Source: Leucoraja ocellata (taxonomy: Eukaryota). Taken from it: 64,000 bases of DNA. The notes under the pieces were generated by a model that saw only the letters and a list, made by a program, of their open reading frames with translations, did not search any database and was not told the origin of the DNA. Each line of letters starts with the position of its first letter. Position 1 is the stretch's first letter. The position numbers were made by a program, and so were the translations under genes. The stretch spans positions 5,022,001-5,086,000 of the forward strand of contig JAWMAR010000148.1 in NCBI GenBank assembly GCA_036785375.1, given 5' to 3'. Below, in pieces: positions 2,707 through 64,000 of this stretch.

Positions 2707-2834
2707 AAATTGATTACAAGATTGGTAATGCTTGTAAATCAGATCCAGCTCAATGGTTAATTTCCAGTAAACCTTTGCATTTTCAATCACAATTTGTGTC
2801 GCTTATTGATTAAAACTATAAAGGAATAATCAGT

Positions 2835-3047
2835 AGGTACACAAAAAAGCTGGAGAAACTCAGCGGGTGCAGCAGCATCTATGGAGCGAAGGAAATAGGC
2901 AACGTTTCGGGCCGAAACCCTTCTTCAACGTTTCGGCCTGAAACGTTGCCTATTTCCTTCGCTCCATAGATGCTGCTGCACCCGCTGAGTTTCTCCAGCT
3001 TTTTTGTGTACCTTCGATTCTCCAGCACCTGCAGTTCCTTCTTAAAC
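2835..3047 (+). mobile_element. Penelope-derived fold-back element with a perfect 14-bp TSD
   Basis: Long inverted arms; aaggaataatcagt at 2821-2834 and 3048-3061. Confidence 0.88.
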
Positions 3048-3220
3048 AAGGAATAATCAGTGATGTGATTGGGGATTGACCAAAGTTGAAAACCACAATA
3101 TGCAAAGAAGTGGAATGGCTGCAATAAAACAAACTGAAGGCAAAACTAAATTGTAAACTTTAAGAAGTTGCTGGAAATGTACAATTTGAATTTGCTTCTA
3201 CCATAATTTTCCCTGGTAAT

Positions 3221-4148: not shown

Positions 4149-4292
4149 TGCAGACTGCATCAGTCTGAAGAAAGGGCTCGACTCAAAATGTCACCTATTC
4201 CTTCGCTCCATAAATTCTGCCTCACCCACTGAGTTTCTCCAGCTTTTTTGCCAACCTTCGATTTTCCCAGCATCTGCAGCTCTTTCTTAAAC
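4149..4292 (+). mobile_element. Penelope-derived single-arm element with a 14-bp TSD
   Basis: gtctgaagaa...ccagcatctgcagctctttcttaaac; flanks atgacaatttaagt and atgataatttaagt. Confidence 0.82.
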
Positions 4293-4547
4293 ATGATAAT
4301 TTAAGTAGTCACTTTTGCTGACATTAACTTTGTTTCGGATTCCCATCATCTGCAGCATTTTAGTTTTATACAGCTAATATTGCCATCTTTATATTTCAGA
4401 TTTTCTTTAATTGAACTGAAACGCCTGTGCTCTGGATTAAAATTTGTAATACCTGTCTAGAAGAATGACAACTAAGCAAATGTAGATTGCAATTAATTAA
4501 ACTTGTATGTATACAAGTAAAATATATGTTACATTTACATTTCAATC

Positions 4548-6929: not shown

Positions 6930-7100
6930 CCTATTTCCTCTCTGACCCTTCCAGTTTTCTTTCCCCCAACCCCTGCAATGTCTGAAGAAGGATCCCAAGC
7001 CGAAACATCACCTATCCATGTTCTTCAGGGATTCTGCCTGACCCGATGAGTTACTTCAGCATTTGTGTCTTACCTTGGTAAACCAGCATCTACAGTTCAT
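6930..7100 (+). mobile_element. Penelope 3' repeat arm
   Basis: tctgaagaaggatcccaagccgaaacatcacc...ccagcatctacagttc. Confidence 0.7.
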
Positions 7101-7679
7101 TATCTTAACATTCCCACTAAATCTTTCCTATCCACGTACCTGTCCAAGTGCCTTTAAATGTTGTTATTGTACCCGTCTCAACTACCTCTTCAGGCACTTG
7201 TATGTTTTTCATGCAAGATCTTAATATCATAACAGTTAATAAAACTTTTTTAAAGCAAAGTAAAGTAAATGCTGGAATCCTGAATTAAAGGCAGAAACAT
7301 CAGCCGCTTCCTTTCTCCACAACTACTAACTGGTCCTCTGCGGATTTCCAATCCATTACAACAAATCTGCAGAATGTTACCTGGTAATGTTTGTAAAATG
7401 GGGACATTGCTCATCATCTCTTTTATCTTTCCCATTTGTCTATCTGAAAATCTGTGGTTCAAAGAATGATCATTCACTTGTCTCACCCCGAAGAGAAAGG
7501 ACAAATCTTGAGCCATTTCATCAAATGAGCACAAGAATCTGCTGCAACCCAATTGTAAGACAGCAATATCTGTTTGGGGTGTTTTAATTTTCTTCCAGTT
7601 TCTTCATTGCAATTTAGAGTGCATATAAATATGTTAAACTGTTTAAAGAAAATTCATTCAGGACAGAACTATCGCATAT

Positions 7680-14335: not shown

Positions 14336-14564
14336 CACTATTCACTGGGATGCTAAACACACATCACCAGAGATCAACCATGTTTTGTGGAAAGCCTGTT
14401 GGTCTCTTTTCAAATTTATTTAATCATGTTTAAGTTAGACTCAATGACTGAAATTGGAGAAAGAAAAATATACATAGGTGCTGCCATTCATTAGTTAGTG
14501 CAGCATACAATTCTTTCTCTGTTTCATACCACCCAAATAGTCTTGCAATATCTTCCCTTCAAGT

Positions 14565-14765
14565 GTTCAAGATGGAACTGCAGATGCTGGAAAATCGAAG
14601 GTACACAAAAAAGCTGGAGAAACTCAGCGGGTGCAGCAGCATCGATGGAGCGAAGGAAATAGGCAACATTTCAGGCCGAAACCCTTCTTCAGAAGAAGGG
14701 TTTCAGCCCGAAACGTTGCCTATTTCCTGCGCTCCATACATGCTGCTGCACCTGCTGAGTTTCTT
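14565..14765 (-). mobile_element. Penelope-derived fold-back element
   Basis: Same family as 2835-3047 in the opposite orientation; inverted arms centred near 14691. Confidence 0.85.
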
Positions 14766-16323
14766 CATTAAAAGTGTCTAATTAATGAACATCTTGATTT
14801 ATCACTCACCTTCCCATTTCTACCTTACTTTGAAGTGAATTATCCTTATCAAGTGCTGTGCTTTAACACTCATTATTTAAAAGCGGCCATTTTGTCTTCC
14901 AATATATTTATCTCATGCTCAATAGATAAATATTGTTCTGCCCGTAATAGACCAATCGAAATGTGGATTTGGAAAGAAAGCCAATGACTCCTTCCCCATC
15001 TTGCAGGAATATTTCTGCAACAATGGGAAGGCAGGTACCCATGTTGAGGTACTTCCTCAAAGGAATCCCAGGAATACATTTGCATTATAAACGCTACATG
15101 TTCGTAAAGATTTTTTATAGCGAGTCACTTTTAAACAGTATTTCATTTGTATGTCTATGAATTCAATGAACACTTCTAGTTTAAGACGTGGATATATCAG
15201 CTGAAATATTTCATCCACTAAACAACAATTTGAAACAAATCAAATTAGTATTATCTTGGCATCTATCTGGCAAATTACCCATGTATGCATTGTGCACAAA
15301 AACAGATCATGTATAATGCAGTCATTTGCTACCCTATCAATCTCTTAATCATCAGTTAGCTACTGGAGGTATTATAAATAGCAACAACGAGTGACACTTT
15401 TTCCAATTAGGTCCCCTGATGTTCAGTTTGGATCTGTCAGAAACAAATTTCTAAATAAATCACAGCTTTTGTCCAAACGTGGATAGAAGAAATGCAGGCC
15501 AAGGATGACAAGAGAGATGTTCCCCTCAACATCAATACAGCATTCAGCCAATTATGTAGAAATACATCATATCAAGACACACATAATGTGATGAAAGGAA
15601 AATTCTCTGGAGACTCTGTTATTCATACTAAAAAGAAAGCAACTATCATTGCCAGAGACTAGTTCTCACGGCATAGAATACTGTCCTTTGTTGCAAGGTC
15701 ACATACAATTGCCATTCCAATCAACTCTTGAGAGAGCTGGGAGGCAAAGTGCAGCTGGAAATGTAGGCAAGATATACAGGGTGGCCAGAGTATGGCCAAG
15801 GATAAGATCAGATATGCGGAAACCATAGGAAACCCAAGCAGGGTTCAGTTGGAAGCCAAGGGCCAGTGTATAGTTGGAGACATAACCAAGTGTGCCATAG
15901 AGGGAAGGAAGTGCTAAGGGCTGAAGGAGATGTATTGTAGCGTTATGGGAGATGGTCAACAAGCTGCAGGTTGTGAGGAGGAAATGAACTCTATGAATTG
16001 AGGGACAGGAAGCACAGAGGATGTGAGAGGTTTGGAGAAGGGTGGGCAAGGAGGAGGGAGAAAGTGTGCAGGAGCACCGGTACTTCAGTCCAAACACATG
16101 GGTCTGTGAAAGCTTGTGAGTGCATACGTATGAATGGCACAACGTGGGCAATGATCTGCTTTGCCTGTATTAAAAGGATCCCACATTGAAGGATTTTTGT
16201 TAAAGTGACCCCAGATTTGGAAGCAGTGAAACCACCAGCCTAAGATCTCTCTACGAAAGCTCCTGATCCAAATACAAACAGCTCCATCTCTTTGTTCCGC
16301 TCTTTCATAAAGACCAACAGTTA

Positions 16324-26959: not shown

Positions 26960-27445
26960 TGGCAGGGGAAGTGACCACTACCCTTCTTGTGGCACTTTTC
27001 CACACAACTGCAGGAGGTACAGCAGCTGCCTTCCCATCTCATCCCTTCCCACCTTCCAGGGACCCAACTGTCCTTCAGGGTGAAGCAGAAATTTGCTTGC
27101 ACTACTTCCAACTTAGGTTGTAGCGTTTAATGCTCACAACCCAGTCTTTTCAGAACAGTCGAGTTACATGTCATTTTAATTCTAAGCGTCTAGTTATATA
27201 TCATTTTAATTCTACATCCCACTCCCTCTCTGATCTCTCCATATTTGATCTCTCACATTGTTGTATTGAAGCCCAAGACACACTCGAGGCACAAGTTCTC
27301 ATCTTCCATCTAGGACTCCATACTGAATTTAATTATTTCTGATAATAAGACTTTATTGTTTATGCTTGAATGTCTACTCACCATAACCTTAACTCTGTTT
27401 CTCTCTCTGCATAGTTGCTGCCTGACCTGCTGAATATTTCCATTA
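26960..27445 (+). mobile_element. Decayed Penelope-like element: GIY-YIG endonuclease end plus 3' repeat
   Basis: Remnants TFQGPNCP..VKQKFACTTSNL and HFNSTSHSLSDLSIFDLSHC...LEAQVLIFHLG...EFNYF, then gctgcctgacctgctga. Confidence 0.75.
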
Positions 27446-29745: not shown

Positions 29746-29799
29746 CTGCAAGCCATTGTTTATTTTCTGCAATATGCTCCTTGCATGCCTGATAACCGT

Positions 29800-30475
29800 G
29801 CCCTTTCTAGAATTCTTAACTTTTACTCACTCTCGCTTTGACGTAGACAGTTTCCTTTTAAATTGTTTCTATGTTTCTTGGCTCTAAGATTCTCCCTTCT
29901 CTGGGACTCCCCCTGCTGGCCTTCAAATCACTTTGGGCCATTTTTATTTCCAACTGCCAGTGTGACATCAACTGTCTTGACTTCCCAACTCCGTTACCCA
30001 CCCTAATTTCACCCCCTCTGAACGCGCAGCCCCATCATTCACTGAGCAACAATCCAAACAGTTGTTAAACCCGCCGATAAGCGAGGTGCCGCTGTGGTCT
30101 GGTAGGCTGCCCTCTACAGTGCTGAGGCCAGGCACCAGCTCTCAGACCCCTTGACCAAGACTTCACAGACAAACAGCAGGCTATCATCTCCCAAAATGTT
30201 TCTAATCTCATCACCTCTGGCGATCTGCTCTCCACAGCCTTCAACCTTATCGTTCCGCAGCTCCGCACTACCAGCTTCTACCTCCTCCCCAGGTTCCACA
30301 AACAGGACTGCACTGGCAGACTCGTTGTTTCCGCCTGCTCCTGCCCCAGAGATCTCATGTCCTTGTACCTTGATTAGATCCTATACCCTCCTTGTTCAGT
30401 CCTTTCCCATCTACATCCGAGAAACCTCTCACACCCTTCAACTGCTCAATATTTTATTATTTCCATGCCTTCAGG
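29800..30475 (+). mobile_element. Decayed Penelope-like reverse-transcriptase fragment (duplicate at ~46340-47015)
   Basis: Frameshifted remnants KPADKRGAAVVW, FYLLPRFHKQDCTGRLVVSACSCP, LLVQSFPIYIRETSHTLQLL. Confidence 0.8.
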
Positions 30476-33330: not shown

Positions 33331-33544
33331 AGGCTACTTGCACAGCCACAGTACAGGGTGTACAGACGCTCTGTCCTGCCTTGGGCTCTCCCCCGGCGGC
33401 TCCTTGCCCCTGTCCTTGTCCTTACTCCAGGCTACTTGTGCAGCTGAGGTTATAGAGCCACACTGAGTCCTTGGGCCAGGCTCCCAGATCCGCTCTCCAC
33501 GGATATCCTGCCAACCGATGCCGGAATTACCCCGGAGGGGGTGT

Positions 33545-33680
33545 GAGAAGGAACTGCATATGCTGCTTTACACCAGAGATATGGACACAAAATGCTATAG
33601 TAACTCAGCGGGACAGGCAGCATCTCTGGAGATAAAAGAGAACGGGCGTCATTTCGGGTCGGGACCCTTCTTCAGACTGA
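33545..33680 (-). mobile_element. Penelope-derived arm inside the promoter (duplicate at ~50105-50240)
   Basis: gaaggaactgca...taactcagcgggacaggcagcatctctgg...cgggtcgggacccttcttcagac. Confidence 0.82.
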
Positions 33681-33912
33681 GTATTCAGGAACAGGAACCG
33701 TAACCATAAACATAAACCCACTGCGCTAAACTACGTCCATCTTCTTTTGCAGATTGTTGTTATTGTTTAACATTTCCCCACAGAAGCCCAGCACAGGCCC
33801 CGCTTCCGTCGGGTTGCTAGGGCGTGTGTCACAGGCAGCAGCTTCCCCCGGTCGATGCCGGGGGGGGGGATGGTGAGGGGAGCGCACTCACACACGCCAA
33901 ACTACTCCCAAG

Positions 33913-35660: not shown

Positions 35661-36280
35661 GTAAGGAACTGCAGATGCTGGTTTACACCTAAAATAAACG
35701 CAAAATGAATTGAAGGTAGACAAAAATGCTGGAGAAACTCAGCGGGTGCAGCAGCATCTATGGAGCGAAGGAAAAAGGCAATGTTTCGGGCCAAAACCCT
35801 TCTTCAGTCTGAAGAAAGGTTTCGGCCCGAAACGTTGCCTATTTCCCTCGCTCCATAGATGCTGCCGCACCCGTTGAGTTTCTCCAGCATTTTTGTCTAC
35901 CTTCGATTTTCCAGCATCTGCAATTCTTTCTTGAACAAAATGAATTGAATTGAATTGAATTTAATACTTTATTGTCACATGTGACAAGGTCACTGTGAAA
36001 TTCTTTGCTTACATACCCAAAGTATGCAAATAGTAGCCTATCGGTGCTTACAAAATGCTGGAGTAACTCAGCTGGTCAGGCAGCATCTCTAGAGAAAGGG
36101 AATAGGTGACGTTTTGGGACAAGTCTGATGATAACATTAAGATATTCTTTAAGAGTAGTAACTTTTGACGTCCAAGTCGCTTCGGCCCTTTGGGTCTGAT
36201 GAAGGGTCTCGACCGCAAAAACGTCATCATATATCTCTTTTCTCCAGAACCCGCTGATTTACTCCAGCATTTTGAGTCTA
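35661..36280. mobile_element. Three-level nest: outer fold-back element, then a LINE-like tail, then an inner fold-back element at 35715-35935 (duplicate at ~52284-52910)
   Basis: Inner element has 96-bp arms (35712-35807, 35809-35904) and TSD caaaatgaattgaa. The outer element is split with caaaatg duplicated. Confidence 0.8.
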
Positions 36281-36393
36281 AAATTGTAATCCTAACTTGT
36301 TTGAATGTTGAAGCAGAGAGCTGTTAGTTATAACACTTCGTCATAAGGAGTCAATTTATAGTTATTTACAGTTGGTTATTTCACATGCTCTAA

Positions 36394-36582
<189 letters not shown>

Positions 36583-38574: not shown

Positions 38575-39170
<596 letters not shown>

Positions 39171-40224: not shown

Positions 40225-40377
<153 letters not shown>

Positions 40378-40667
40378 TAAAATTCATCTGAAAAGAACTT
40401 TGTTATTAACTTATCATTTCATAATGGGGTAATATTCCAGTGAAATCAAGGTGGACCTCTTGGTTGATGAACCTATGATTGGTATAACTGGAAGTGTACC
40501 CTTCTGCTCAGTTGAGTGCGAGTGGAACTCACGAACACTAAACTGGTGACTACATTATAATAGGTCAGCACAAACCTGTGAACGTCTCCCACGCTGGGAA
40601 ATGTGATTGATGAATCCACACCAGGTTTTTCTGGCACAACCAAAGCTGGCCCATCAAACAGATGAAA

Positions 40668-40881
40668 TGTGTAGGAAGGAACTGCAGATTCAGGTTACAC
40701 CGAAGATAGACACAAAGTACTGGAGGAACTCAGTGGGACAGGCAGCATCTCTGTAGAAAAGGAATAGGTGATGTTTCGGTGAATAGGTAAAGATGGGTCT
40801 CTACCCGAAATGTCACCAATTCCTTCTCTCCAGAGATGCTGCCTGCCCCACTGAGTTACTCTGGCATTTTGTGCCTACCTT
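40668..40881. mobile_element. Penelope-derived fold-back element (duplicate at ~56960-57172)
   Basis: gtaggaaggaactgcagat terminus and inverted arms. Confidence 0.8.
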
Positions 40882-43800: not shown

Positions 43801-44583
43801 AGGTTGGATTTGCACAAAGGTTGAATCTGACGTGTTCATGGGCATTTATTAAACTTATTGCAAAATCATGATGTACAGAACAGGCCACCACCAATGATCT
43901 GTAACGGGAAATGTAAAAAAAAAGTTGCCAGTTAATTCCTGACCACTGCACCAACTGAAAATAATGTAATGGGAACAGCTTTAATCGTGAACTGTGAAAG
44001 ACAGTGAGATTTCAGTTGTCTGCAAATGTGGTGGTACTGTAGAGTGTTGTTTTCCTCTTTAGAAAAGTTGCTCTTGGTGGCTTTTTTTTCTATAGCCACC
44101 AGAGGAAAAATAATAGCTTCCAATCCAAATGTTCTAAATCTCTGCATCTACTGCAGGGTTTCCCCCACTGCAATCGATACTCCTGCTTAATACATGCACT
44201 ATTTGACAGCATGAAACTGGTTTCATTTGAAGTGTATTAGATTGAGGTAGAATGGGCGTCCTGTATTTTTATTTTTTGCCTTGTTTATTTAACACACCCA
44301 CAAAAATTCCCATCGGCCCTTTTCCTCCACAAAACTCCAAGTTTCATAACTTGCCGTGATGAGGAAGTTAGAAACATCCATTTGGTGTTCCCAAGTAGGA
44401 ATAGGAGAGAAAATGATAATAGGGAAGCAGTCTAGGAATCTTTAATATATTTTATTCCAGTCTTATTTCTCTTTGTTTTGCCTGCTTTTATGTTATATTT
44501 GCATTTTCATTTTTGTTTCTGATCTTGTGTTGATTTTATTGTGATGTCTTCCCCCTCTGAACCCGTGTTCTTGAATTATTTTT

Positions 44584-44783
44584 NNNNNNNNNNNNNNNNN
44601 NNNNNNNNNNNNNNNNNNNNNNNNNNNNNNNNNNNNNNNNNNNNNNNNNNNNNNNNNNNNNNNNNNNNNNNNNNNNNNNNNNNNNNNNNNNNNNNNNNNN
44701 NNNNNNNNNNNNNNNNNNNNNNNNNNNNNNNNNNNNNNNNNNNNNNNNNNNNNNNNNNNNNNNNNNNNNNNNNNNNNNNNNNN
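44584..44783. other. Assembly gap (200 N)
   Basis: Run of exactly 200 N, a round placeholder length. Confidence 0.99.
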
Positions 44784-47700
44784 AGCATTCATCACTGTGG
44801 TGGAAGGCACAAGAAATCATAATAAATGGAATTTTCCAACAACACAGAAAAAGCTGGAATAATGTCAGCGGGTCAGGCACCATCTGTGAAAAGAGAGATA
44901 GTCAATGTTTCAGGTTTGGGACTTTCACCAGAACTGGGAAAAAGATAAACATGTTATTCTAGATAGTGGCGAATATGTGAGAGGGCAATAGGTGGAATAG
45001 AGGGAATTGCCCGATAAGATGTCTGACACTTTAATTTGCCATTCACTTTCACTCCAATCTCAGTCTGTGGTCTCCTCCTCTCTTACAATGAGACCCAAAA
45101 CAAGCTCAAAACACAATGCCTTAACTTTTACCTGCACATATTGCTATTTCTCTAATTTCTTCCATTTTTATTTGAATCAGGATCAGGCATTTTTACCTGT
45201 CATCTCTTTTTCCTTTTTATAAATCAGACTATACAAACATGTTACTCAGCCAAAGATGCTGATCCATCCCCTATTTGCCATTTTTTCCACCATAATCAGA
45301 GATATTCCTATTGTTCCACTGATTGGCCTCCCTTACCTTCTCTACTATCTGGGATAATTGATTTCACGATGTCCGAGTCCGGATGAAAGAACCCAGAACT
45401 GAAACATTAACTGTTTCTCCTTCCATTGGTGCTGCCTGGCCTGTTGAGTATTTACAGTTTGACAACTTTTACATTTCCATTTACAGCATTTCTTTTCTGT
45501 TTCTTAGGGTGGCAAAGTGGCGCTGCTGCCTCACAGCGCCAGAGACCAGGTTTGATCCCGACCACGAAGGCTGTCTGTACCGAGTTTACATGTTTTCCCT
45601 GTGTATTTTCTCCCGCTGTTCCTGTTTCCTCCCACATCCCAAAAACATGCAGGTTTGTAGGTTAATTGATCTCAGTAAATCCTTTGTAAGTCATTGCAGT
45701 TATTGTTGCTATTGCAATATATTTGGTGGAACATCAGGCAGCGACAAAATTGCTCTAAGTTGTGACTTTCTAGAAATGTATAAATTGAAAACAGTTTTGA
45801 TCATCATTGAAAAGACCTTTCAGAATGTTTGACTGGGGGGGGGGGGGGGGGGTGAGAAAATTAGCATGAAAAATGGCAATGCTAACATTTCAACTAAATG
45901 GCATCTTTTTAAGGAAAAACACAAAGTGCTGGAGTAACTCAGTGGGTCATGCAGAAGGTGACGCTTCAGCTCAAGACCCTTCTTCCTTGCAGATGCAAAA
46001 TGCAAAATTAAATACAGCACAGCAACTGGCCTTTCAGTCCAAATGCTGTAGCCAGGGGTTCCCAACCTTTTTCGTCCTGTTTACCCCTGGCAACTTTAAT
46101 AGCACATAATAATGTTATTTCACTTTTTTATGAACAACTAATGATGAACAGATACCAGTATACCAGAACCATACACAGTCAGTCAGTGAGAAAAAATATG
46201 TACAAATCCAGAATCAACAAATTTACCCCCTTAGTAGACAAAATTTACCCCCTGGGGGTAAATTTACCCCAGGTTGGAAACCCTTGCTGCAAGCCATTGT
46301 TTATTTTCTGCAATATGCTCCTTGCATGCCTGATAACCGTGCCCTTTCTAGAATTCTTAACTTTTACTCACTCTCGCTTTGACGTAGACAGTTTCCTTTT
46401 AAATTGTTTCTATGTTTCTTGGCTCTAAGATTCTCCCTTCTCTGGGACTCCCCCTGCTGGCCTTCAAATCACTTTGGGCCATTTTTATTTCCAACTGCCA
46501 GTGTGACATCAACTGTCTTGACTTCCCAACTCCGTTACCCACCCTAATTTCACCCCCTCTGAACGCGCAGCCCCATCATTCACTGAGCAACAATCCAAAC
46601 AGTTGTTAAACCCGCCGATAAGCGAGGTGCCGCTGTGGTCTGGTAGGCTGCCCTCTACAGTGCTGAGGCCAGGCACCAGCTCTCAGACCCCTTGACCAAG
46701 ACTTCACAGACAAACAGCAGGCTATCATCTCCCAAAATGTTTCTAATCTCATCACCTCTGGCGATCTGCTCTCCACAGCCTTCAACCTTATCGTTCCGCA
46801 GCTCCACACTACCAGCTTCTACCTCCTCCCCAGGTTCCACAAACAGGACTGCACTGGCAGACTCGTTGTTTCCGCCTGCTCCTGCCCCAGAGATCTCATG
46901 TCCTTGTACCTTGATTAGATCCTATACCCTCCTTGTTCAGTCCTTTCCCATCTACATCCGAGAAACCTCTCACACCCTTCAACTGCTCAATATTTTATTA
47001 TTTCCATGCCTTCAGGATCACATTTAATAGAATAATATTGCTTAAATATATAGTTATTGGATTTTGCATTTCGAAAAAGTCCCAGCTGAGAGGAAGACAG
47101 CAAAATACTGCAAATATTCGGGGTGGAAAATGACTCCAGGACAGTTTGTTAGGAAAATAAAGGAAATGGTAACATAATACTTATACAGTTGAGTGAGTAT
47201 AATTTTATGGATGAGAAATTGTGTTCAACCAATTGATGACTTCTTTGACAAAGTAACTAGCATGTTAGATAACAAGGAAGCCAATGGATGTACCTAATTT
47301 TGTTATACAAAATTTGGTCTGTGAAGTGCCCCATAAAAGATTACCGCATTAGAAAAGCACCTGTGGACTTGAACGTAATAGGTTAAATCCAGGGGGTCAG
47401 ATATGGGGCTTTATGTGTGGGCCAGATATATTGTCAGTGCAGAGGGGCTAGGAGCAAGGCCAAGTTTGCTCGCTAAATTTCATCAAAAGTCAATAAAGCC
47501 TTACTTTTGATGAAATTCAGCGAGCAAATGCGATAATTTCCGATATTTTGGACCTTTAAATCTCCACGGCAAATGTCTGCTAAGCACTTCCGCTGTTTTT
47601 CCACCTTCAGTTCCCTCTTGTAATTACCTTACTTTCTATCTTTTTTTTTGCCTGAAAATTTAGGTCGCTGTGCTTCACGGTCACCCCGACTAGCACAGAA

Positions 47701-49037
47701 AATTTCAGCTCAAAAATCGGCCTTTCTCCATGTTTTTAACGGGTGTGAAAGTGCGTGTTTCCCCATTCACTAACATGTACCGAAGTGACATATGTCCTCC
47801 AGTTAAATTTTTCGGTCACGTGAGGGGGGATCTACACTCATTTGACCTTTGGTGAAATCACCCTATGGGAGTGTTCAGCACTGGGAACCTAAGCAGATAA
47901 GCAGCTATGATCAGGGTAGAATAGGGGGGCAGGTGTAAGACTGGGCTCAGGGTCAGGAATGAGAGAAGGTATGCAATTGGAGTCAGGGTCAAGAATAGTA
48001 CCAGGTGTGCAGTGAGACCTAGGTTGGTCAACATGGGCCAAGTGTGTTATAATCTGATTTCCATACATGAAAATATTAAGATCATTCATGTGCTGCACCT
48101 GCTGATCAGAGCCTGGCTCTACTGTGGAATGTAATTAGGAATGTAATTTAGCCTAACCTTATTCATAGCTAATCCAATATAAAACATAAATATTGCATTC
48201 AAGTGTAAGTTAAAATGCTCGCTACAGCATGCATCAGATTGCACAATTTCAAGCTGAAAAATGCAAAAGCTCGAACCAATGGCGCTCCCTCGGGCTTGGT
48301 CTGTCGCAATTTCTAACTCCCAATTGCCACCCAATGTTGGCAGCCCTGCTACTTTAAAACCCCTAGCCAAACACTGTCCACCAATATGTGCCAGATATTT
48401 TATGTTACTTTGGTGTCATGCACAAAGATCTTATAGTCATGCACACTTGGCCACTGTGCACACACGAGCCATGACGAAACTAAACAGTGTAAACGTGTTG
48501 CACTCGTGACAGTCCTTGCGCACCTCGTGACATAATCCCAATTAAAATCTCTTTAAAACGTTTGGAAAACTATGACGAATGTAAACGACTGGGTAAGAGT
48601 AGTCTGTCGATTAGGGGAACGTATGCAGTTCATCAAATAAACCAAATCAATTGTGTTATAAGTGAAATGAGTGATTGAATTGACGGAATTTTCGTGGACG
48701 GGTGTCGATTTACACTATGTTATGTCCGTGTCGAACATAACACAACTGATCGCGTCTTGTCAGATGGATATTTCAGAAAAGCTGAACTCGACATTGTTTG
48801 TTAACCAAATAAAAAGCACAACTGTTCGTCTCGTGATTAATAAAGCCTGAAATCATCAATCCCATCCCGGGACTTGCGAGTCTATCATTAAGCATCGCAA
48901 ACAGTAAAATAGAGGCATTAGGAACTCTGGCTGATAGTTTACAAACCATACACACGCACACCCCAAGTGTTGGAGTAACTCAGTGGATTACTCAGCCAAG
49001 TTGCTTAAACCGAGGTAAAGTTGCGAGGGCTCTCTAC

Positions 49038-49093
49038 CTTTCATTTTCTGACACTTGCAAGAACTGCTGCGGCGGCGTGGCGCCGTCCTCCAT
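49038..49093 (-). CDS. GALK2: GALK2 coding exon 1 (copy B)
   Basis: Coding sequence identical to 32474-32529; donor is gtagag instead of gtatag. Confidence 0.8.
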
Positions 49094-50474
49094 CCCTCTT
49101 CCTTGTGGGAGGGGTTCGGTCCTGTCTTGAAACCACCCCCGGCGCTGGTTTCCCTGGTCTGGGGCGAGGAGGAGTCTTACCCTGTTCTGGGATTCCTTCC
49201 CCCGTATCTCCTTGCACAGGGTATGAAAGCACCTTGTAGTGAGATTTCCCCAGGACTGCTCGCACAGCCGAGAGAGAGGAGATAACTTGGCTCGGGATTC
49301 CCCTGGAGGCTCCTTGTCCTGTCGTGGGATCCTTGCACAGCTGAGAGCGAGGAGATGCCCTGTCCTGATCTGATCTGGGATCCCTCCCCCGTAGCTCCTT
49401 GAACGGCCGGGGAGTGTACATACGCTCTACCGTGGCTTGGGACTCCTCCGGCGGCTCCTTGCTCTGCCCTGGACCAGCCTCCTGGCACGGCCGAGGGTGG
49501 GAAGGTGCCCTGTCCTGGCTTGGGATTCCCCTGACGGTTCCTTGCCCGGTCTCTCCGACCCCTTGCCCTGTCCCCACGACTCCTTGACCTGTCCCTCCTC
49601 CAGGCTACTTGCACAGTCGAGGGTGTGCAGACGGCCTGTCCTGCCTTTAGGATTGCCCCTGGCGCCTCCTTGCCCCGTCCCCACTCCCCCTTGCCCCGTC
49701 CCCACTCCCCCTTGCCCCGTCCCCACTCCCCCTTGCCCCGTCCCCACTCCCCCTTGCCCCGTCCCCACTCCCCCTTGTCCCGTCCCCACTCCCCCTTGCC
49801 CCGTCCCCACTCCCCCTTGCCCCGTCCCCACTCCCCCTTGCCCCGTCCCCACTCCCCCTTGCCCTGTCCCCACTCCCCCTTGTCCTGTCCCCACGCCTGG
49901 CTACTTGAACAGACACAGTACAGGGTGTACAGACGCTCTGTCCTGCCTTGGGCTCTCCCCCGGCGGCTCCTTGCTCTGCCCCTACTCCAGGCTACTTGTG
50001 CAGCTGAGGTTATAGAGCCACACTGAGTCCTTGGGCCAGGCTCCCAGATCCGCTCTCCACGGATATCCTGCCAACCGATGCCGGAATTACCCCGGAGAGG
50101 GTGTGAGAAGGAACTGCATATGCTGCTTTACACCCGAGATATGAACACACAATGCTGCAGTAACTCAGCGGGACAGGCAGCATCTCTGGAGATAAAAGAG
50201 AATGGGCGTCATTTCGGGTCGGGACCCTTCTTCAGACTGAGTATTCAGGAACAGGAACAGGAACCATAAACATAAACCCACTGCGCTAAACTCCGTCCGT
50301 CCCCCTTTGCAGATTGTTGTTATTGTTTGACATTTCCCCACAGAAGCCCAGCACAGGCCCCGCTTCCGCCGGGTTGCTAGGGCGTGTGTCACAGGCAGCA
50401 GCTTCCCCCGGTCGATGCCGGGGGGGGGGGGATGGTGAGGGGAGCGCACTCACACACGCCAAACTACTCCCAAG
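49094..50474. promoter_or_regulatory. Shared bidirectional promoter region (copy B)
   Basis: Divergent ATGs 1382 bp apart; GC- and CpG-rich. Confidence 0.72.
49540..49897. repeat. Two-part 21-bp minisatellite (copy B): about 2.7 units, a 71-bp spacer, then about 11 units mostly CCTTGCCCCGTCCCCACTCCC
   Basis: Units counted: 49540-49596 and 49668-49897. Confidence 0.93.
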
Positions 50475-50528
50475 ATGTCTGACATGGAGGATGACTTTAT
50501 GTGCGATGATGAGGAGGACTACGACTTG
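50475..50528 (+). CDS. COPS2: COPS2 exon 1 (copy B)
   Basis: Identical to 33913-33966. Confidence 0.97.
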
Positions 50529-53022
50529 GTATGGCTCTAGTGTCCGCGGTTTACCGCGTAGAATTAGATCTCGTTTTCTTTTGGAGGTAGTTCCTGGCGG
50601 CTGAGAGTGGAGAGGCCGGTTTTCTCCTTCCTCCTGCAGCAGGAGCTGTGGCTGCTGTGTGTGTGAGACCGAGCTCCAACATTTCAACCTTACTACCTGC
50701 AGGCGGAATCTCAGTACGAATTAAAACGCAGCTGAGGTTGATCTGCCTTTCATTTCTTTCAAATCCATACTATTCCGGGTGGTGTTTTAGTTGCTGATTC
50801 CCAGATATCTGGTAACCTTGTGAGACGGGCCTAGCCCGCCGGGTTAGGCCGAAATAGATTGGGCCTATTCTTGTTTCAAGAGACCCAATACTTCAAAATT
50901 ATCTCACAGTGTCTCTTGTACGATTGCTATTAATTCTAATTATGTAGGTTCCAGTACGAAAATTGTGAGTTTCAACGTGTCAGTTGATCTAGGGCCTCAA
51001 TCTACCTGAACATAAATAATGTACTGTGTCTTGTACAATTGTCATTAGTTCTATTCATATTGGTTCTAGTACGAACATTGTGAATCGCCAATGCCATCTC
51101 ATTTAGGGCCTCCTAATTTGCCTTAACATAAATAATGTACGACAACAACCTCTGAATACTTATACTGAAATTGTAATAATAACTAAGTTATTGGTGTTAG
51201 TCTGTAATGTTTTGAAACTGTAGCTCTCTGTCATACATGCATTTGGTACATTTTGTCATATTTATCAAAATGTGTATTTGTCTGTTACATGTGTATTATC
51301 ACATATTCTTTTGAAATCAAAATTAAGCAGTTAATCAAAATTAAATCAAATTTAACTTTTATATAACCTTTCAATGTTTTTATAATTTCAATTAAAATCA
51401 AGTGCTTTTTGCCTTCATAGAATTGATCGTTTTGCAAAATAATAGTAGACAGATTTATGAAAATGAATCTTAATGAATTTGAACAGTGTTAATACGCTAT
51501 CGACATTGTCATTGAATTTTAGGGAAATGTACTCGAACTAGGATTGTGCAAGCTTTATTGACAGCAAAGCAATTTAGTAGTTAATCCATTGATGGAGATT
51601 ATTGTTTATGACATAATCTGTTGAAATCACCACTGTCACAATTCACCTTATGTATATATAGATAAGTTTTGAAAGTCCTAATTCAGGATACACTTTCCAT
51701 GATATTGAGGGTGTAAAATTCAGTAAACATGCAATAGTGTCACAGTTTGGTCGAATCAAATGTTTAATCCAAAACCGGTACAATCTATGAAATTTGCTGC
51801 AGATACAATTTTCATAAGATACTCTTAGAATGTAGTCATTTTGACATCCCAGTCTTTGTGCCCCTCATTTCAAAAGATTAATTGTTTGTTTGAAGGATAT
51901 TTTTAAAATTGGCTTCTATGTGAATATCTGGGGCGAAAAAATTGTATTCTAGGTTTTGTTGTGTAATAATGCAAAGTTTTCAAGGAACTGCCAGTATTTC
52001 ATTTTATGCATTTCACCAGGGGTTCTTTTACCAAGGATTATAACTAATGTTCTTTCATCCATTCTTTATTTGAACGGAATACCTTTCACTCATTAGTTGG
52101 CAAATTTATTTTAATTATTAATCAATGTGCAGTTTCAGGAAGCTAAATCAGTAAAGGTACTATATAGTTATTATTCATTGGTGGTTCTGTTATCTTTCTA
52201 TTTTCACTTTCTAGTGTCGTCAGATGAATATACTTTCTTGCAAAATCCATTTCCACGATACTATGCATACACTGAAGAAAATTGTAAGGAACTGCAGATG
52301 CTGGTTTACACCTAAAATAAACGCAAAATGAATTGAAGGTAGACAAAAATGCTGGAGAAACTCAGCGGGTGCGGCAGCATCTATGGAGCGAAGGAAAAAG
52401 GCAATGTTTCGGGCCGAAACCCTTCTTCAGTCTGAAGAAAGGTTTCGGCCCGAAACGTTGCCTATTTCCCTCGCTCCATAGATGCTGCCGCACCCGTTGA
52501 GTTTCTCCAGCATTTTTGTCTACCTTCGATTTTCCAGCATCTGCAATTCCTTCTTGAACAAAATGAATTGAATTGAATTTAATTTAATTTAATACTTTAT
52601 TGTCACATGTGACAAGGTCACTGTGAAATTCTTTGCTTACATACCCAAAGTATGCAAATAGTAGCCTATCGGTCGGTGCTTACAAAATGCTGGAGTAACT
52701 CAGCTGGTCAGGCAGCATCTCTAGAGAAAGGGAATAGGTGACGTTTTGGGACAAGTCTGATGATAACATTAAGATATTCTTTAAGAGTAGTAACTTTTGA
52801 CGTCCAAGTCGCTTCGGCCCTTTGGGTCTGATGAAGGGTCTCGACCGCAAAAACGTCATCTATCCCTTTTCTCCAGAACCCGCTGATTTACTCCAGCATT
52901 TTGAGTCTAAAATTGTAATCCTAACTTGTTTGAATGTTGAAGCAGAGAGCTGTTAGTTATAACACTTCGTTATAAGGAGTCAATTTATAGTTATTTACAG
53001 TTGGTTATTTCACATGCTCTAA

Positions 53023-53211
<189 letters not shown>

Positions 53212-54873
53212 TAGGAATTTACATTCTAATCCAAGCGAGCATTTCGACTATATTATCAAATACTAAGGGTGATAATTTTATGTACCTGTTGAGCAAAGAT
53301 AGTTCTATCATTCTGAAATTGTACAATGTCACAGCACAGAAATGGGTTATTTGAGTGATCAGATCTGCACTGATCTATTTTGTATGAGACATTTTAGTGA
53401 TTTCATTTTATTGTTTTATGGGAAACAAAGGAATAATATATTTCTATATTTTATTTTCATTGTCATTTTTATTATCTTGAATTTATACATTAATTTCGTG
53501 ACCCTTTCACCAACCAGTTTCTGCAATCTATCACTATTTGGTTTATTGCCACTCTGTCATCTTAAAATCCATTGGGTCTCTACTTTATTTGCTTCAATGG
53601 AAAAAATAACACTGGATTTGCAAATACATGTAATGTTGATAAGAACTAAGCTTGAATATTTGTGTTTGTTTTTATGTCCCTAGAATAATGAGATGTCCAA
53701 AATTTGCAATATGCTTGTAGACTTTAGAGAGATAGTGTGTAAACAGGCCCTGCGGCCCACCGTCCGCACCGACCAGTGATCACCGTGTATACCAGCACTG
53801 TTCCACATGTTAGGGACAATTTACAAAGCCAGTTAACCTACAAAACTGTACATCTCTGGAATATGCGAGGAAACAGGAGCACCCGGAGAAAACCCACACA
53901 GTCATAGGGAGAACGTACAAATACCATACAGACAGCACCCGTAGTCAGGATCGAACCCGGGTCTCTGTTGCTGTCGCTGTAAGGCAGCAACTTTACCGCT
54001 GTACCACTGTGCCATCCTTCAACTAACTCTTAGCACCCAGATCGTGTAATTTATTTTATATTCTATACCACCGGACATAAATCAAATTGTCTTTCTCTTT
54101 ATTGAACAGACTCTATATCTGATTCTATTAAAATGAGTTGTAAATTTGCATACCTAAATCCCTCTTGTCCCTATTAAATAATAGCATTGCTTTCTTTTCC
54201 CTATTGTATTTTTTTTAATAAGTTATTTTTCTATATTAAGCTGCATTGGTCAACTATCAGCCCATGCTCTTGCAGTCTTTTACCAATCTTCTCGTGACTG
54301 CCATTCCCCTCCTCTGATTTGTGTAATTTAGTATATTTTTTCATGTACATCCCACTGGACATTTATCTGTGAGTCATAGTTAAATACATGGCAGCTAGAA
54401 TTTAAATTTACTCTGCCCAGTTGGGAAATCAGTAGTGAGTACACATTCGAAATGAATTGAACTGACGTAAATGTTACTCTTAATTTATACATTTAGTAAA
54501 GAACAGTACACAGACTCCATAATTGATCATTCAAAATATAATCTAGTAAATAGGATTTTATCTCATTTAGGTAATTTCCCTACATTTGTATTTATGATCA
54601 CTGTCATATTAGATTTGTTTTGAAGGAACCTGTGTGTGAAATGTTAATATCGTTCCAGTTTCTGCTCTTTAGTTTTTTTTTTGCAGGTTACAAAATTATG
54701 ATTCTTATTTAATGAAGATATGAAAGTGCAGTTTCTGTTGACAATTTCTTAAATGATTCCCCCATGCATGACTTACTGGTCATGAATATTTATTTATCAC
54801 CAGTCAAAAGACCATTCCTCCGCCACTACACTATCTTCTTTGACCGTGCCAACTCGCCACAGATCCCATGTGA

Positions 54874-55029
<156 letters not shown>

Positions 55030-56515
55030 TAGAACAGTACAGCACAAGAATAGGCCCTTCACCCCACAATGTCTGTGGTGAACATGATGCCAAGACCATC
55101 ACTTATCTACCTGCATATACCCCACATCCCTCCATTCCCTACATAGAAAAACAGGTGCAGGAGTAAGCCATTCGGCCCTTCGAGCCAGCACCGCCATTCA
55201 ATATGATCATGGCTAATCATCTAAAATCAGTACCCTGTTCCTGCTTTCTCCCCATATCCCCACATATCCATATTCCCATCCAAAAGTCTTTCAAATGCCA
55301 CTAAAGTGTCTGCTTTAACCACCACCCACTGCATCCAGTTCCAGGCACCCACTACCCTGTGTGGGGGGAAGAAAATCTTGCCCCACACATCTTTAAACTT
55401 TGCTCCCTTCACTTTAAAGCTATGCCCTCCAGTATTTAACTTTTTTCCTATCGTGGGGAAAAAGATGCATGTTCAAGTGCTTATGCTTTGTAAAGAAGAA
55501 TATTTTTGAATTTCAAAGAGAAGTAAATGAGAGATGTAATTGCTAAATATTATTATTTTGTCAATACAGGGGGGTGACTATTGTCCAGAAACGGAACTGG
55601 GTCTTCCATTTAAATACTGTAACTACAGGAGCATTTCACGGGATGCTTGTCCTGCAGTGAATGACTCGCTTCCTAACACCTCAAAACAATTCAACCCATT
55701 CAGTTCCACTGCTTAAGAAACTTTAAGCCCTCATGATTGGCATCCCATCCACCACCCTAAACATTCATTCCTTTTCAGTTTAGTTTATTATTGTCACGTA
55801 TACCAAGGCACAGTGAAAAACGTTTTGTTGCGGTGCTGTCCAGTCAGAGAAAAGACTATACATAATTACAATCAAGCCGTCCACAGTGTACAGATACATG
55901 ATAGAGGATATAACATTTAGTACAAGCTAAAGTCCTATTAATGATAGTACCAAGTTCTCCAATGAGGTTGATGGAAGTCTGGACTGTTCTCTAGCAGGTG
56001 AGAGGACAGATCAGTTAGCTTTTCTCATTGTGGTTGTATATGTACTGTCTACAGAATGCACTACACTTACCTACCAAGATTCCTTCAACAGCATCTCCCA
56101 AACCTGCACATTAAGTAGGGCCATGGGGCTTGTTATTGTGCTGTACTGTTCTAATAGCAGTGTCCAGGCTAGCGCCACCATACCAGGTCCTCTCTATGTC
56201 TCATGCCTTTTTGACTGGGAAATACATCCATTTATATCACTGGGCCTAAATCCCAGATCTTGCTTTTCAACAGCACCCATGGGAATACCCTCACTGGAAA
56301 GATTGCAGTGGTTCAAGAAGGCAGCTTACTGTCACTTTTAAAGGGCAGTTAGAGATAAGCGTGAAACACAGGCCATGCCATTGGTGCCCAGATCCCAGAT
56401 TTTGACTTTAATGGAGTGCTTTTGATGAGACGTTTCTTTGTACATGTTCAACTCTTTATTAATTCTAAATGTTTAATTATAAATATGGTCAATTAAAGAC
56501 ACAAATGGAAGATAA

Positions 56516-56668
<153 letters not shown>

Positions 56669-59600
56669 TAAAATTCATCTGAAAAGAACTTTGTTATTAA
56701 CTTATCATTTCATAATGGGGTAATATTCCAGTGAAATCAAGGTGGACCTCTTGGCAGAAGAACCTATGATTGGTATAACTGGGAAGCGTACCCTTCTGCT
56801 CAGTTGAGTGCGAGTGGAACTCACGAACACTAAACTGGTGACTACATTATAATAGGTCAGCACAAACCTGTGAACGTCTCCCACGCTGGGAAATGTGATT
56901 GATGAATCCACACCAGGTTTTTCTGGCACAACCAAAGCTGGCCCATCAAGCAGATGAAATGTGTAGGAAGGAACTGCAGATTCAGGTTACACCGAAGATA
57001 GACACAAAGTACTGGAGGAACTCAGTGGGACAGGCAGCATCTCTGTAGAAAAGGAATAGGTGATGTTTCGGTGAATAGGTAAAGATGGGTCTCGACCCGA
57101 AATGTCACCAATTCCTTCTCTCCAGAGATGCTGCCTGCCCCACTGAGTTACTCTGGCATCTTGTGCCTACCTTCTGGCCCATTGAAGTGCATGGGAGAAA
57201 TTGACAGCAGGAGGAAGATTTAGATTTTAATTACTTTTAAACGTATGTACATGATTTTACTACTTATATTTAAGAAGTGATTTTGAATGTTTGTGAATGT
57301 CAATTGGGGGCTCTCGTTATCAATGCTGTTCTGACAGCACAGCTGATCACTTGCCCAAGGCCATATCAGTGTACTGGAAGCCAGCTTCCCTGGAGAAGAC
57401 TGTGCCCAGGACTGTGCTGGAAGAAACAGCCTGGTTCAGTGTTCAAACAGCGGGTGGCAGTGAAACAACTCTGTCAATAGTTAAGTGAATCCACAGCTGT
57501 AACAATGTTGTGGAGAGAGGAAAAAAATAGCAGAATGTAAATATGCTGCTTGTCAAACCCAAACCTTAAATCCATACTTTAAGTGTGAAAGTGTAAATAT
57601 TCATAAATACATTTTAATGTTGAGTCTGTAAGGCTGGCAAGCAAGTAGTGGATGATTAACGCTAGATTGTGAGAAACAGAGAGGCCACAATTTAAAGTTG
57701 TTTAGACAAGAAGAAAAAGCTTCTGGTTCTTACTGTTTATGACCTTGCAGAATGTGCATGAACGGTCAAATAAAGAAATTAAACCTTGTATTCAATAACT
57801 TGGAGTGAAAAAACATGCTGGATATGAGGCACTGCACAGAAGAATAACTTGAGAAACATCAGTACCAAGGCTAGATACTAATAGACTGAAAAACAAATGG
57901 GTATTGGATTAGAAAGGATGAATAAAGAGACATGAATTTGGTACCTAAATTTTTGAATGCAGTGGAATACAAACCTGCTGAAGCCATATAGTGGGTTTGA
58001 AGGAGTCACAAATCGACAAGAGGCAAGAATGCAGCGTTCCGGGGAAGGATGAGGCCGTGCAACAAAATAATGGTGATGCTGGTTATAACTTGGACTCTAG
58101 TAGTTAATGTCGATCGGGCCATTAAGCTGAACATTTTACATGTGGATAAATCCATGTGTTAGGTCGATTAGCCAGGTGAACACTGGAATAGTTCATAGAG
58201 GAGTCAGCAAAAGTATGGATAAGGATCCATGTTGCATGTATGAGAGAGATGGTTGATGAAGAGAAAATTTGGTTTTTGAAAGGGCATTCAGATGCTAACA
58301 GTATAGTTTAACCTGAGCGTGCTGGGATGAATCTGTACCAGGCTTTGGAGTGATGCAGCCACTGAAGATGAGGTTTATGTGATGTGAGCATTTTGTGTCA
58401 GGATTTTAAGTCTCATCGAAAGCCAAGAATGTAGTAGTGTGATTAAATTTCACATGACATTTGTATGCTGCGGGATCCAACTAGTGAATGTGCTAACAAG
58501 TGTTTCTGTTTGCTGCTTGGGATTATTCTCTTTGACATTTGATGCATGTAAATTTGTACTTTCCAAGTCACCTTTCTTAAAATCAGAAAACTGAGTTTAA
58601 TCATCAAAATAACACTTGCACCTGCCACTGAAATACATCATCAGTTGACTTTTTTTTTCTTTTGCTCCTTGTTGTTTTGTTTGGCCATCAGTACATCATG
58701 CAAACAATTGAACATGATCTCTAAGCTAATGTTACTTATCAAAAAGGTTGAGGTGATGTCCCATGTCTCAAGATGGAGAGTAGTTGCTCTGACCATTTAA
58801 AATGGGTCTCTTTAATCGGAACACATTCTCTTTATTTATTTAACAGATTAAACCTTGTTTAAGATTGTTTGAAAATGGGCAGAAAGTTTAAGTGGCTGAA
58901 CTTATTTTTTGTTAGAATACCCCAATGCCTTTCTTCTGTCAGGATATTATTGTACGATTGCTGTTCCGTGATGACTTGCTGGAACACATGCACACATAGG
59001 TATGGTCATCAGTGATGTATGGCAGCATTTAATCCATTGACTCCGAAAGAGTAGAAATTTAGGTGAAGGTCTGGAGGATGCTACATCAAGAGCATGAATC
59101 AGAAAATTTACACTGTGAAAGTCACTTAGCCCATCGTGTCTATGCCAGTTAAAGAAGAGCTATAATCCCACCTTCCAGCAGGAGACCCTGTGGCAGGGTC
59201 ATCGTTCAATTATATGTTTAATTTCCTCAAAGCAGATTGACAGCTTAATGTACCTAATTAAACCAAATCCTACTTGTGTCCTTGAATTTTGGTATGCCTT
59301 CTGTTTAGCATAGTAAATGCATGCCCCATTGCGTTTATTTTGATCTTCTGCAATGTGTCACCGATAAAGGCAAACATGAGAATTTAGTATTAATTAAGCA
59401 CTTTAGTTTGCCACTGGAATGCCAACTCTTCTGTGTTATGCCTCTTAGAATCTGCTATATTGTATGTTCCAGAGATTCACAAACTTGATCTTTCTGTAAT
59501 ACTTTTTGCATGAAGGTTTCAAAAGATAACTAATGTCTTTGTCTTTAGTGGTTCTTGAGTTTAAGTTCCAACTTTGCAGTCCTTCTCTTCTGACTAACAG

Positions 59601-61780
59601 GCAAAGTTTATGTATGGAAAGGAAAATATTATTTTGCATAGTTTATAGCCAAAGCCACACTTTTAATACAGTCACATGTAATAGAGGAAGATGTGGAGCT
59701 GCTTATATTTTAGAGCAAGTTGTGCAAACATCAGTTATATGTGAAATAGAGGGAGAAATATCCAAGGAACACCAGGAGATCTCCTCTGTACTTTGGTGCT
59801 GTTACATTATTTGTATCCATGTAGGTTGGACAGCGTCCACTTTAAATGTCTCCTCCTGAAAAAGTGACTGCCCACAACACTCCCTCTCCCCCCCCCAAAT
59901 CTCATGCTTGAATAACTGTTCAAGTACCTGAATAGGTTATAAAATGTAAATCAGCTGAATCTGGTGAGAATCCTATGACGGAGTCTTGACAGGTAGAATT
60001 TGGACCTTTGAAGCAAGCACCCTCCCACCCCAGTTGTTAGTTTCCATGTGTTTCTGTACATTGCAACACTCGTCATAGTGAATGAGGTTGGATTTGCACA
60101 AAGGTTGAATCTGACGTGTTCATGGGCATTTATTAAACTTATTGCAAAATCATGATGTACAGAACAGGCCACCACCAATGATCTGTAACGGGAAATGTAA
60201 AAAAAAAATTGCCAGTTAATTCCTGACCACTGCACCAACTGAAAATAATGTAATGGGAACAGCTTTAATCGTGAACTGTGAAAGACAGTGAGATTTCAGT
60301 TCTCTGCAAATGTGGTGGTACTGTAGAGTGTTGTTTTCCTCTTTAGAAAAGTTGCTCTTGGTGGCTTTTTTTTCTATAGCCACCAGAGGAAAAATAATAG
60401 CTTCCAATCCAAATGTTCTAAATCTCTGCATCTACTGCAGGGTTTCCCCCACTGCAATCGATACTCCTGCTTAATACATGCACTATTTGACAGCATGAAA
60501 CTGGTTTCATTTGAAGTGTATTAGATTGAGGTAGAATGGGTGTCCTGTATTTTTATTTTTTGCCTTGTTTATTTAACACACCCACAAAAATTCCCATCGG
60601 CCCCTTTCCTCCACAAAACTCCAAGTTTCATAACTTGCCGTGATGAGGAAGTTAGAAACATCCATTTGGTGTTCCCAAGTAGGAATAGGAGAGAAAATGA
60701 TAATAGGGAAGCAGTCTAGGAATCTTTAATATATTTTATTCCAGTCTTATTTCTCTTTGTTTTGCCTGCTTTTATGTTATATTTGCATTTTCATTTTTGT
60801 TTCTGATCTTGTGTTGATTTTATTGTGATGTCTTCCCCCTCTGAACCCGTTTTCTTGAATTATTTTTCTTTTTTTTTGCCACATTACTTTTTCTTCCCAT
60901 TTTAACATCTTTCTGTCCTTTTCATATTTTTATTTCTATCTCCTCCTTACCCTTCCCTTTTTTTCCCCCACCTTACCTGCCCTCTCTGGAACCTGTTGCA
61001 ACTACCTTGGTCAAGCAGCAGAAGTCGATGAAGAGGCAGGGTAGCAGCGGGGGAATCGCAGAAACGGACCTGAAAGCTTGCTTTGGCGGGGAAGCTGAAT
61101 CAAAGGTCAGAAAAATATTTGCGTAATGTCAGGATGGATAGATGTGACAAAACTGTAACATCAGTGTTTGCTTTTGCTGGTGCGGGTGGTGAAGTGGTTA
61201 AGTAAATCAGTTACTTCAATCTGGTATCAGTCATCTAATTAACCTGGCAGTAAGTACAGGTATAGACTTATGGAAATGGCAGGATTGTAAGCACATTTGA
61301 TCTTTCTACCATTTCAAAGTAATGTAAATCATGTTTAATTTCCAAGATTTGAGTTGAGGAAGCCTCAAGACCTATGGTCCCATAGTTATGTACTTATAAA
61401 ATTGTTGGTAATATAGAAAACTAAATGATTGAAACAAATTAACTAAAGTAATATTCTGTAGGCTTTAATTTCTGCTTTTGAGACCCATTGTACTTCAGTA
61501 TATTTTGCAGGAAACACTGGCTCTTCAAACAATGTCTTTGGTTCAGTGTCAAATTATTCAGATTTAAACTGAATAAAAATAATTTTCTACTGTTGAGAAA
61601 GCTAATATTAAAGTCAGAAGTAAATTGTTCATAACTTAAAACAAATGAAATTTAGTGCTCCTTCAACCTCACGACCATACTTCTATGATCATGGAAAGCA
61701 AACTGTCTGTGGCTGCTGAGTTTGGGATTAATTTTGCAAAACTTTGGAATGGCAGTGAATAACACTGAATAATGTCAATA

Positions 61781-62365: not shown

Positions 62366-62455
62366 ATGGACTTATTGCAAGAATTTTATGAAACTACCCT
62401 TGAAGCTTTAAAAGATGCAAAAAATGACCGATTATGGTTTAAGACAAACACAAAG
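62366..62455 (+). CDS. COPS2: COPS2 exon 5
   Basis: [30 protein letters not shown]; 90 bp, AG/GT flanks. Confidence 0.97.
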
Positions 62456-63392: not shown

Positions 63393-63722
<330 letters not shown>

Positions 63723-63746: not shown

Positions 63747-64000
63747 CGAAGATAGACACAAAAAGCTGGAGTAACTCAGCGGGTCAAGCAGCATCTCTGG
63801 AGAAAAGGAATAGGTGACGTTTCAGGTCGAGACCCTTCATCAGACTGAGAGTCGGGGGAGTGGGAAATGTGAGAAATGAAAAGGTGCATGGAACAAATGA
63901 ATAAAAGGTATGCAAAAGAACGAGTCAAAGCCAGAAACGATGATCAAGGAAAGATGGAGCCCACAATGGTCCACTGCTGTCTGTGGAGAAGGTGATAACT
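63747..64000 (-). mobile_element. Penelope 3' region with the best-preserved hammerhead-like core
   Basis: Minus strand 63843-63816 reads CTGATGA-A-GGGT-CTCG-ACCT-GAAAC-GTC; the element continues past the window edge. Confidence 0.8.

Follow-up and report, generated by a model that had tools for sequence, protein, structure and literature searches.

The window analysed here, a stretch of 64,000 nt of Leucoraja ocellata DNA, ends within an intron of COPS2. The exon upstream of this intron lies in the window (Table 1), and the next COPS2 exon lies beyond it, at L061:1580 in the adjoining sequence. We read the preceding exon as also being part of COPS2 (COP9 signalosome subunit 2). On the COPS2 exons, stranded reads from a relative have the orientation that plus-strand RNA would give. 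Within the intron, on the minus strand, lies a minimal type I hammerhead motif; as the COPS2 exons are on the plus strand, this copy is antisense to its host, and the host pre-mRNA therefore bears the reverse complement of the motif.

The 28 nt at 63843-63816 match exactly the letters given in an earlier, sequence-only reading of this DNA. They comprise CUGAUGA, an extra A, a 4-bp helix II with a CUCG loop, GAAA, a loopless ACGU helix III and the cleavage triplet GUC; the 10.1-11.1 pair is G.U in this copy and G-C in the family (81 of 116 copies). That reading had called this the best copy, with a stem I of about 2 bp, and both statements hold: among 20 core-like sites compared, one of which (62244) is probably a chance match, 63843 alone combines the full core, four helix II pairs, the helix III CG and a 2-bp helix I, and helix I is likewise 2 bp in locus L259. 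The core pattern has 13 matches in the window at no more than one mismatch (0.86 expected; none of 100 shuffles reaches 13), and a family profile search found 38 copies. No Rfam hammerhead model was among the 30 window matches at E <= 10. Sub-threshold matches to Rfam mir-722 fall on inverted pairs at 14657-14725 and 2893-2955 (E about 1e-7 to 1e-6) and probably reflect hairpin shape only.

All of the variant copies reported earlier are present (35809+, 14692-, 52430-, 6982+, 33675- and 36196+). The accompanying claim that stem II pairing is kept among them is correct in part, failing at 6982 (A.G), 35809 (A.C at 10.1-11.1) and 36196 (G.G); U16.1 is lost in 33675, and both G12 and U16.1 in 36196. 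Not all of these copies are independent, because the window contains a tandem duplication of about 16.5 kb (28367-44583 versus 44812-60867, 95-98% identical), so that 33675/50235, 35807/52430, 35809/52432, 36196/52828 and 40787/57079 are pairs. Between the two halves lies a run of N (near 44584-44811), and they may represent a true duplication or an uncollapsed haplotype; they contain a 21-bp GC-rich minisatellite (32971-33415 and 49474-49894) whose copy number differs between them. Elsewhere in the window, a 258-codon open frame at 11086-11859 (+), without a match in Pfam, resembles the RT C-terminus of a CR1-type LINE. No tandem array of complete hammerhead units, the arrangement by which non-LTR retrozymes are recognised, occurs in the window.

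Table 1. Features of the window (PLE, Penelope-like element)
Feature	Position	Strand	Remarks
Core of the minimal type I hammerhead (C3 to C17)	63816..63843	-	Read from sequence
Core with 2-bp helix I (U-A and G-C, then A.C mismatched at the third position)	63814..63845	-	
3' fragment of Neptune-type PLE: 3' UTR, motif, pLTR to about +95	63748..64000	-	
COPS2 exon upstream of host intron	63393..63567	+	58/58 aligned residues identical to human CSN2
Preceding exon, AG/GT boundaries	62366..62455	+	
Head-to-head inverted stub pair, cores 35807- and 35809+, one long hairpin	35709..35947		Duplicated at 52332-52571
Head-to-head inverted pair, cores 14692- and 14690+	14550..14767		
Head-to-head inverted pair, core 2928- with C3 mutated	2820..3060		
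Stub, CCCG loop, U16.1 lost	33540..33696	-	Duplicated at 50097-50260
Stub, core intact, helix II and helix III broken	6956..7105	+	
Stub, G12 and cleavage triplet disrupted	36187..36285	+	Duplicated at 52820-52915
Stub, G12 lost	4157..4304	+	
Decayed PLE ORF fragment (region before RT)	29898..30447	+	Duplicated at 46439-46988
Decayed PLE linker/GIY-YIG remnant	27059..27315	+	

The parent element

The fragment that carries the 63843 copy was identified by tblastn (E 2.5e-7) and by blastn to EN-linked loci. It extends past the window to about 64230 and includes a GIY-YIG C-terminus (64200-64087) and its stop codon, which lies 238 nt upstream of C3 on the same strand. Among 30 genomic loci chosen by the GIY-YIG peptide alone, 21 have the motif no more than 800 nt downstream on the same strand, and walking upstream from GIY-YIG leads to a CX4CXXC linker and RT motifs. 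Full-length copies, located with the N-terminal portion of a homologue from shark as query, have a unit of 3,946 bp and an ORF of 1,221 aa with an RT and, at its C-terminus, a GIY-YIG domain; the same 1,233-codon open frame was found in at least 15 of the 150 scored rows of that search. The ATG of full-length elements lies 164 nt after C3, and the motif is present in both pLTRs of 15 of 17 near-full-length loci, which had been selected for long open frames. L259 shares at least 99.5% identity with ten of the 16 other loci, and head-to-tail arrays occur among them. Such arrays make up L259-L262 (G000:C300, C8 and C1), where units within C300 are 99.97-100% identical and a long proline-rich stretch, which varies in length between copies, lies ahead of the RT in the ORF.

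In Pfam, the 1,221-aa ORF matched RVT_1 at E 1.6e-6 and GIY-YIG at E 0.013, neither reaching the curated cut-off, and homologues of the protein carry PF00078 and PF01541; the closest named proteins, from two sharks, are 63-66% identical. A PDB sequence search with the RT-EN part returned 0 matches. A CX2-5CxxC linker is given as the Neptune signature in the PLE classification on which we draw in part (PMC8557442), and on its linker motif alone the element is assigned to the Neptune clade. Other PLE features are also present, namely the tandem and inverted pLTR structure and a tail of 30-40 bp.

The earlier proposal of a minimal hammerhead of Penelope origin is supported by direct linkage of the motif to RT and GIY-YIG. 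The same reading regarded the copies as relics, some possibly still active. The former description suits the copies in the window, which are 5'-truncated stubs; continued activity is plausible for the family elsewhere, given its intact and near-identical full-length copies, and not for those in the window. We consider it probable that the motif is a minimal type I hammerhead in the pLTR of a young and hugely abundant Neptune-type PLE, and that 63843 is a 5'-truncated antisense insertion in the COPS2 intron, likely inert.

Abundance, decay and conservation

We sampled 1.2 Mb at evenly spaced round coordinates on the 57 largest contigs and found 574 family copies, which extrapolates to about 1.6 million in the genome; the intact 32-nt motif has 48,687 exact matches genome-wide (reversed control, 0). 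Rows from a satellite locus, L123, were left out of the counts of helix pairing, subfamily differences, core retention and truncation (17 of 286 and 17 of 574). Among 260 core-spanning sampled copies, the core is intact in 107; 44 keep the core together with helices II and III, 35 (about 13%) add the 2-bp helix I, and seven a third pair. G12 and the helix III CG lie in CpGs and are retained in just 68-76% of copies. Where helix III was scored, its CG is kept in 60 of 121 copies, the remainder being mostly the CpG-decay products CA and TG, and it is intact in 63843 and L259. Most family copies have decayed, mainly at CpG sites.

Copies often lie in opposite orientations, with 44 head-to-head and five tail-to-tail pairs among 286 copies; inverted arrangements are known for PLEs (PMC8557442, in the part cited), and the pairs are predicted to fold as one long hairpin. 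Two derived structures were also observed. In the excluded locus (L123, G000:C17:7000001-7010000, about 5770-7430), a tandem array of a 66-bp unit derives from the 3' part of the element; it begins at GAAAC and lacks the CUGANGA half, and is thus a PLE-derived satellite without the ribozyme. At 140 sites genome-wide, an inverted insertion places the post-cleavage sequence, as its reverse complement, directly against a core. Such joints can build a long helix I; it reaches 14 bp in L168, where G12 is mutated, and the other five of the six seen are broken. Intact inverted-joint copies, if any, would be better ribozyme candidates than the parent motif.

Across four subfamilies the core is invariant, and differences within the motif are confined to loop 2, U-A to U.G changes in helices II and I, and C17 to U17. 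The sequence-only reading had proposed comparing core with flanking positions across subfamilies, and the outcome is weakly in its favour: none of 11 non-CpG core positions is variable among subfamilies, against 17 of 60 flanking positions (P = 0.037 by Fisher's exact test, with a 12% threshold chosen after the first table had been viewed). For stem II covariation, which it had also proposed to examine, we found one-sided, pair-preserving or loop-only changes and no two-sided compensatory pair. Identity to the consensus is 0.94 in the core and 0.91 at invariant flanking positions, which indicates ordinary decay after insertion. Core invariance thus weakly suggests selection on the motif in source elements.

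Cleavage, insertion ends and the role of the motif

Even L259, the youngest of the intact full-length elements, has a helix I of 2 bp, and a third pair is present in 16% of copies. The published search descriptor for minimal hammerheads requires a helix I of at least 3 bp (PMC4209133, in the part cited), which 11 of 71 sampled matches to core and helix II reach and which both 63843 and L259 fail; the alignment in that paper does contain 2-bp cases, found by hand, from Culex, Drosophila virilis and Oikopleura. No longer helix I or type III arrangement was found, except for a weak 3-bp extension past an internal loop. In energy models, which leave out tertiary contacts and protein, the double hammerhead is predicted at about -7 kcal/mol versus -29 to -38 kcal/mol for competing dimers; the predicted probability of helix II is about 0.1 or less, and folding z-scores are 0.4-0.5. 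In the competing hairpin, GGGU is predicted to pair with the sequence just after the cut site, against helix II. The published minimal hammerhead was inactive as a monomer and had low activity as a dimer. Because helix I is so short even in the youngest element and the fold is disfavoured in prediction, self-cleavage by the family motif is doubtful; it likely cuts poorly or not at all.

The 5' ends of insertions bear on the same question. Between +50 and +15 the hazard of truncation stays near 0.01 per nt; it rises to 0.11-0.19 per nt at -1 to -4, where 101 of 212 copies at risk end; at the cut site itself (first base after, +28) we found four of 387 ends, which is no excess. Among 203 core-bearing copies, 52 keep a recognisable 3' UTR upstream, 56 adjoin an inverted copy and 95, possibly including a few misfiled old-subfamily copies, adjoin unrelated DNA. 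On their 3' side, long copies stop at +93-95 in eight of 16 loci, at +129-131 in seven and elsewhere in one. An extra G precedes the start in 14 of 21 local copies, as expected from cap copying; genome-wide the extra base is G in 9,796 cases, T in 7,491 and A in 73,437 (C not counted), so that the G excess is modest. An uncut template RNA likely starts where these 5' ends are in excess, 1-4 nt ahead of the core. In a polyA RNA run from a relative, of which about 6% was read, there was no pile-up of ends at the repeat, which is a weak test because of random fragmentation, and the repeat was equally represented on both strands (6,252 versus 6,208). In these reads the motif region, too, is equal on both strands, and the PLE coding part at L151:1800-2900 is 1.5-2 times more antisense than sense.

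For the anole PLE, the part of the report on which we draw (PMC11167929) describes RT initiating internally at two sites that bound the tail, with unprocessed RNA as the main substrate and hammerhead mutants inserting normally. A comparable course can be sketched here. To judge from the DNA ends alone, the element RNA would start 1-4 nt before the core, and RT would initiate internally about 95 or 130 nt downstream on uncut RNA, as it does for the anole element in vitro. Initiation in the copy at the RNA 5' end would yield stubs of 100-135 nt, and initiation in the downstream copy would yield long insertions. Selection in source elements would have maintained the motif, which would cleave weakly at most, as a dimer or with the help of protein; after insertion, copies would decay neutrally. 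Our tentative proposal is that the transcript of this cartilaginous-fish PLE starts right where the hammerhead begins, so that helix I is left with 2 bp, that the motif is a 5'-end element and not a cutter, and that internal RT initiation 95 or 130 nt downstream has stamped more than one million stubs of 100-135 nt; taken as a whole this is possible and still short of probable.

A related reading, which we regard as rather unlikely, is that in this lineage the motif has ceased to act as a ribozyme and owes its conservation to a promoter or protein-binding role at the RNA 5' end. The 2-bp helix I, the competing GGGU hairpin and the presence of YAGT before the core in 41 of 46 endonuclease-linked copies, which we take to fit the initiator consensus, would agree with it, but variation within the motif is limited to what a hammerhead tolerates, and a 2-bp helix I is shared with the minimal hammerheads from mosquito, fly and Oikopleura named above. 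Conversely, the motif could be an efficient ribozyme of the active element, two pLTR copies of which form a double hammerhead and release a unit-length RNA that may circularise as template, a model proposed by Cervera and De la Pena (2014; PMC4209133, in the part cited). Two motif copies lie 3,946 nt apart, head-to-tail arrays exist, ACGU is palindromic, the core is invariant across subfamilies, three more helix I pairs are possible beyond a 2x2 internal loop in the youngest subfamily, and the anole hammerhead cleaves in vitro (PMC11167929). This is nevertheless unlikely: 5' ends are not in excess at the cut site, and inverted junctions there (140 of 1,437) do not outnumber other joints at microhomology, to judge by the 100 listed. 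The predicted double-hammerhead fold also lies 20-30 kcal/mol above its alternatives, the published minimal hammerhead had no monomer activity and low dimer activity, and eight of nine Xenopus dimers did not cleave.

The sharp 5' edge might also have another source than transcription start, being either a 3' splice site (YAG|U) or a product of fold-back at a CAG-N-CUG palindrome. A conserved YAG follows a pyrimidine-rich tract, Drosophila virilis offers the precedent of an intron ending at helix I, and many inverted junctions fall at the palindrome; however, non-inverted stubs mostly retain G(-2) (75%) and often A(-3) (59%), both of which would be lost on splicing, and the flanks upstream of these stubs bear no relation to one another. 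For the one donor tested, at the ORF stop, the intronless form gave 0 exact matches to a single pattern, and thus no intronless junction. We therefore consider this origin improbable. Recruitment of the 63843 copy for cleavage or regulation of the COPS2 transcript is hardly credible, even though this is the sole window copy with all hammerhead features, since it is antisense to COPS2, its 10.1-11.1 pair has decayed, and 35 of 260 core-spanning copies are equally intact by chance of age.

Relation to known hammerhead elements

The motif belongs to a kind already published by Cervera and De la Pena (2014), and in the part of that work on which we draw (PMC4209133) the PLE minimal hammerheads agree with it in the CUGANGA core, the extra nucleotide after A9, G10.1-C11.1, the loopless palindromic 15.2-16.2, the copies in both pLTRs, and the large numbers of single copies and opposite-strand pairs. 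In minimal hammerheads helix II measures 3-7 bp, and an additional base follows A9; the 4-bp helix II found here conforms; the departure from the published descriptor lies in helix I (2 bp here, 3 bp needed). The host family is new relative to that source, whose Table S1 and Fig. S3 contain no cartilaginous fish, and exact intact copies number 48,687 here versus about 4,000 in coelacanth and 9,000 in Xenopus. Our literature search found no paper on the motif of this family, which may be catalogued in Repbase, Dfam or preprint supplements.

As in EN+ PLEs of the Neptune group, so far as these are described in the part of PMC8557442 cited, the element has an RT, a CX2-5CxxC linker and, at the C-terminus, a GIY-YIG domain, with partial tandems, inverted 5'-truncated copies and a 30-40-bp tail; it is set apart by its roughly 1.6 million copies, mostly stubs of 100-135 nt. 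The anole Poseidon element PAc, in the corresponding part of PMC11167929, likewise has its hammerhead in the pLTR and no RNA ends seen at the cut site, and its two RT start sites are matched here by two 3' ends about 35 nt apart. The PAc ORF starts inside the hammerhead, whereas here the ATG lies 164 nt downstream, and PAc cleavage has been shown, whereas the present motif is known from sequence alone. Non-LTR retrozymes, as covered in the parts of PMC7229834 and bioRxiv 10.64898/2026.07.22.740005 on which we draw, also carry type I hammerheads, are related to PLEs and number as many as 120,000 in axolotl; the preprint's sampling includes one chondrichthyan. They consist of tandem repeats with mostly canonical ribozymes and form circular RNAs, in contrast to the dispersed pLTR stubs with minimal motifs described here.

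Most of this family, with its roughly 49,000 intact cores, would escape searches whose descriptor demands a helix I of 3 bp. The 63843 copy is itself ordinary, and its value lies in leading to an intact young element and to the statistics of insertion ends. The role of PLE hammerheads is described as unclear in the cited parts of the literature (PMC8557442, PMC11167929), and this genome offers both a young, intact Neptune element and a huge record of insertion ends. If our tentative proposal is true, internal initiation on unprocessed RNA would be confirmed in vivo by the record in this genome, and what PLE hammerheads do would become directly testable in a Neptune element that is still active and has identical copies.
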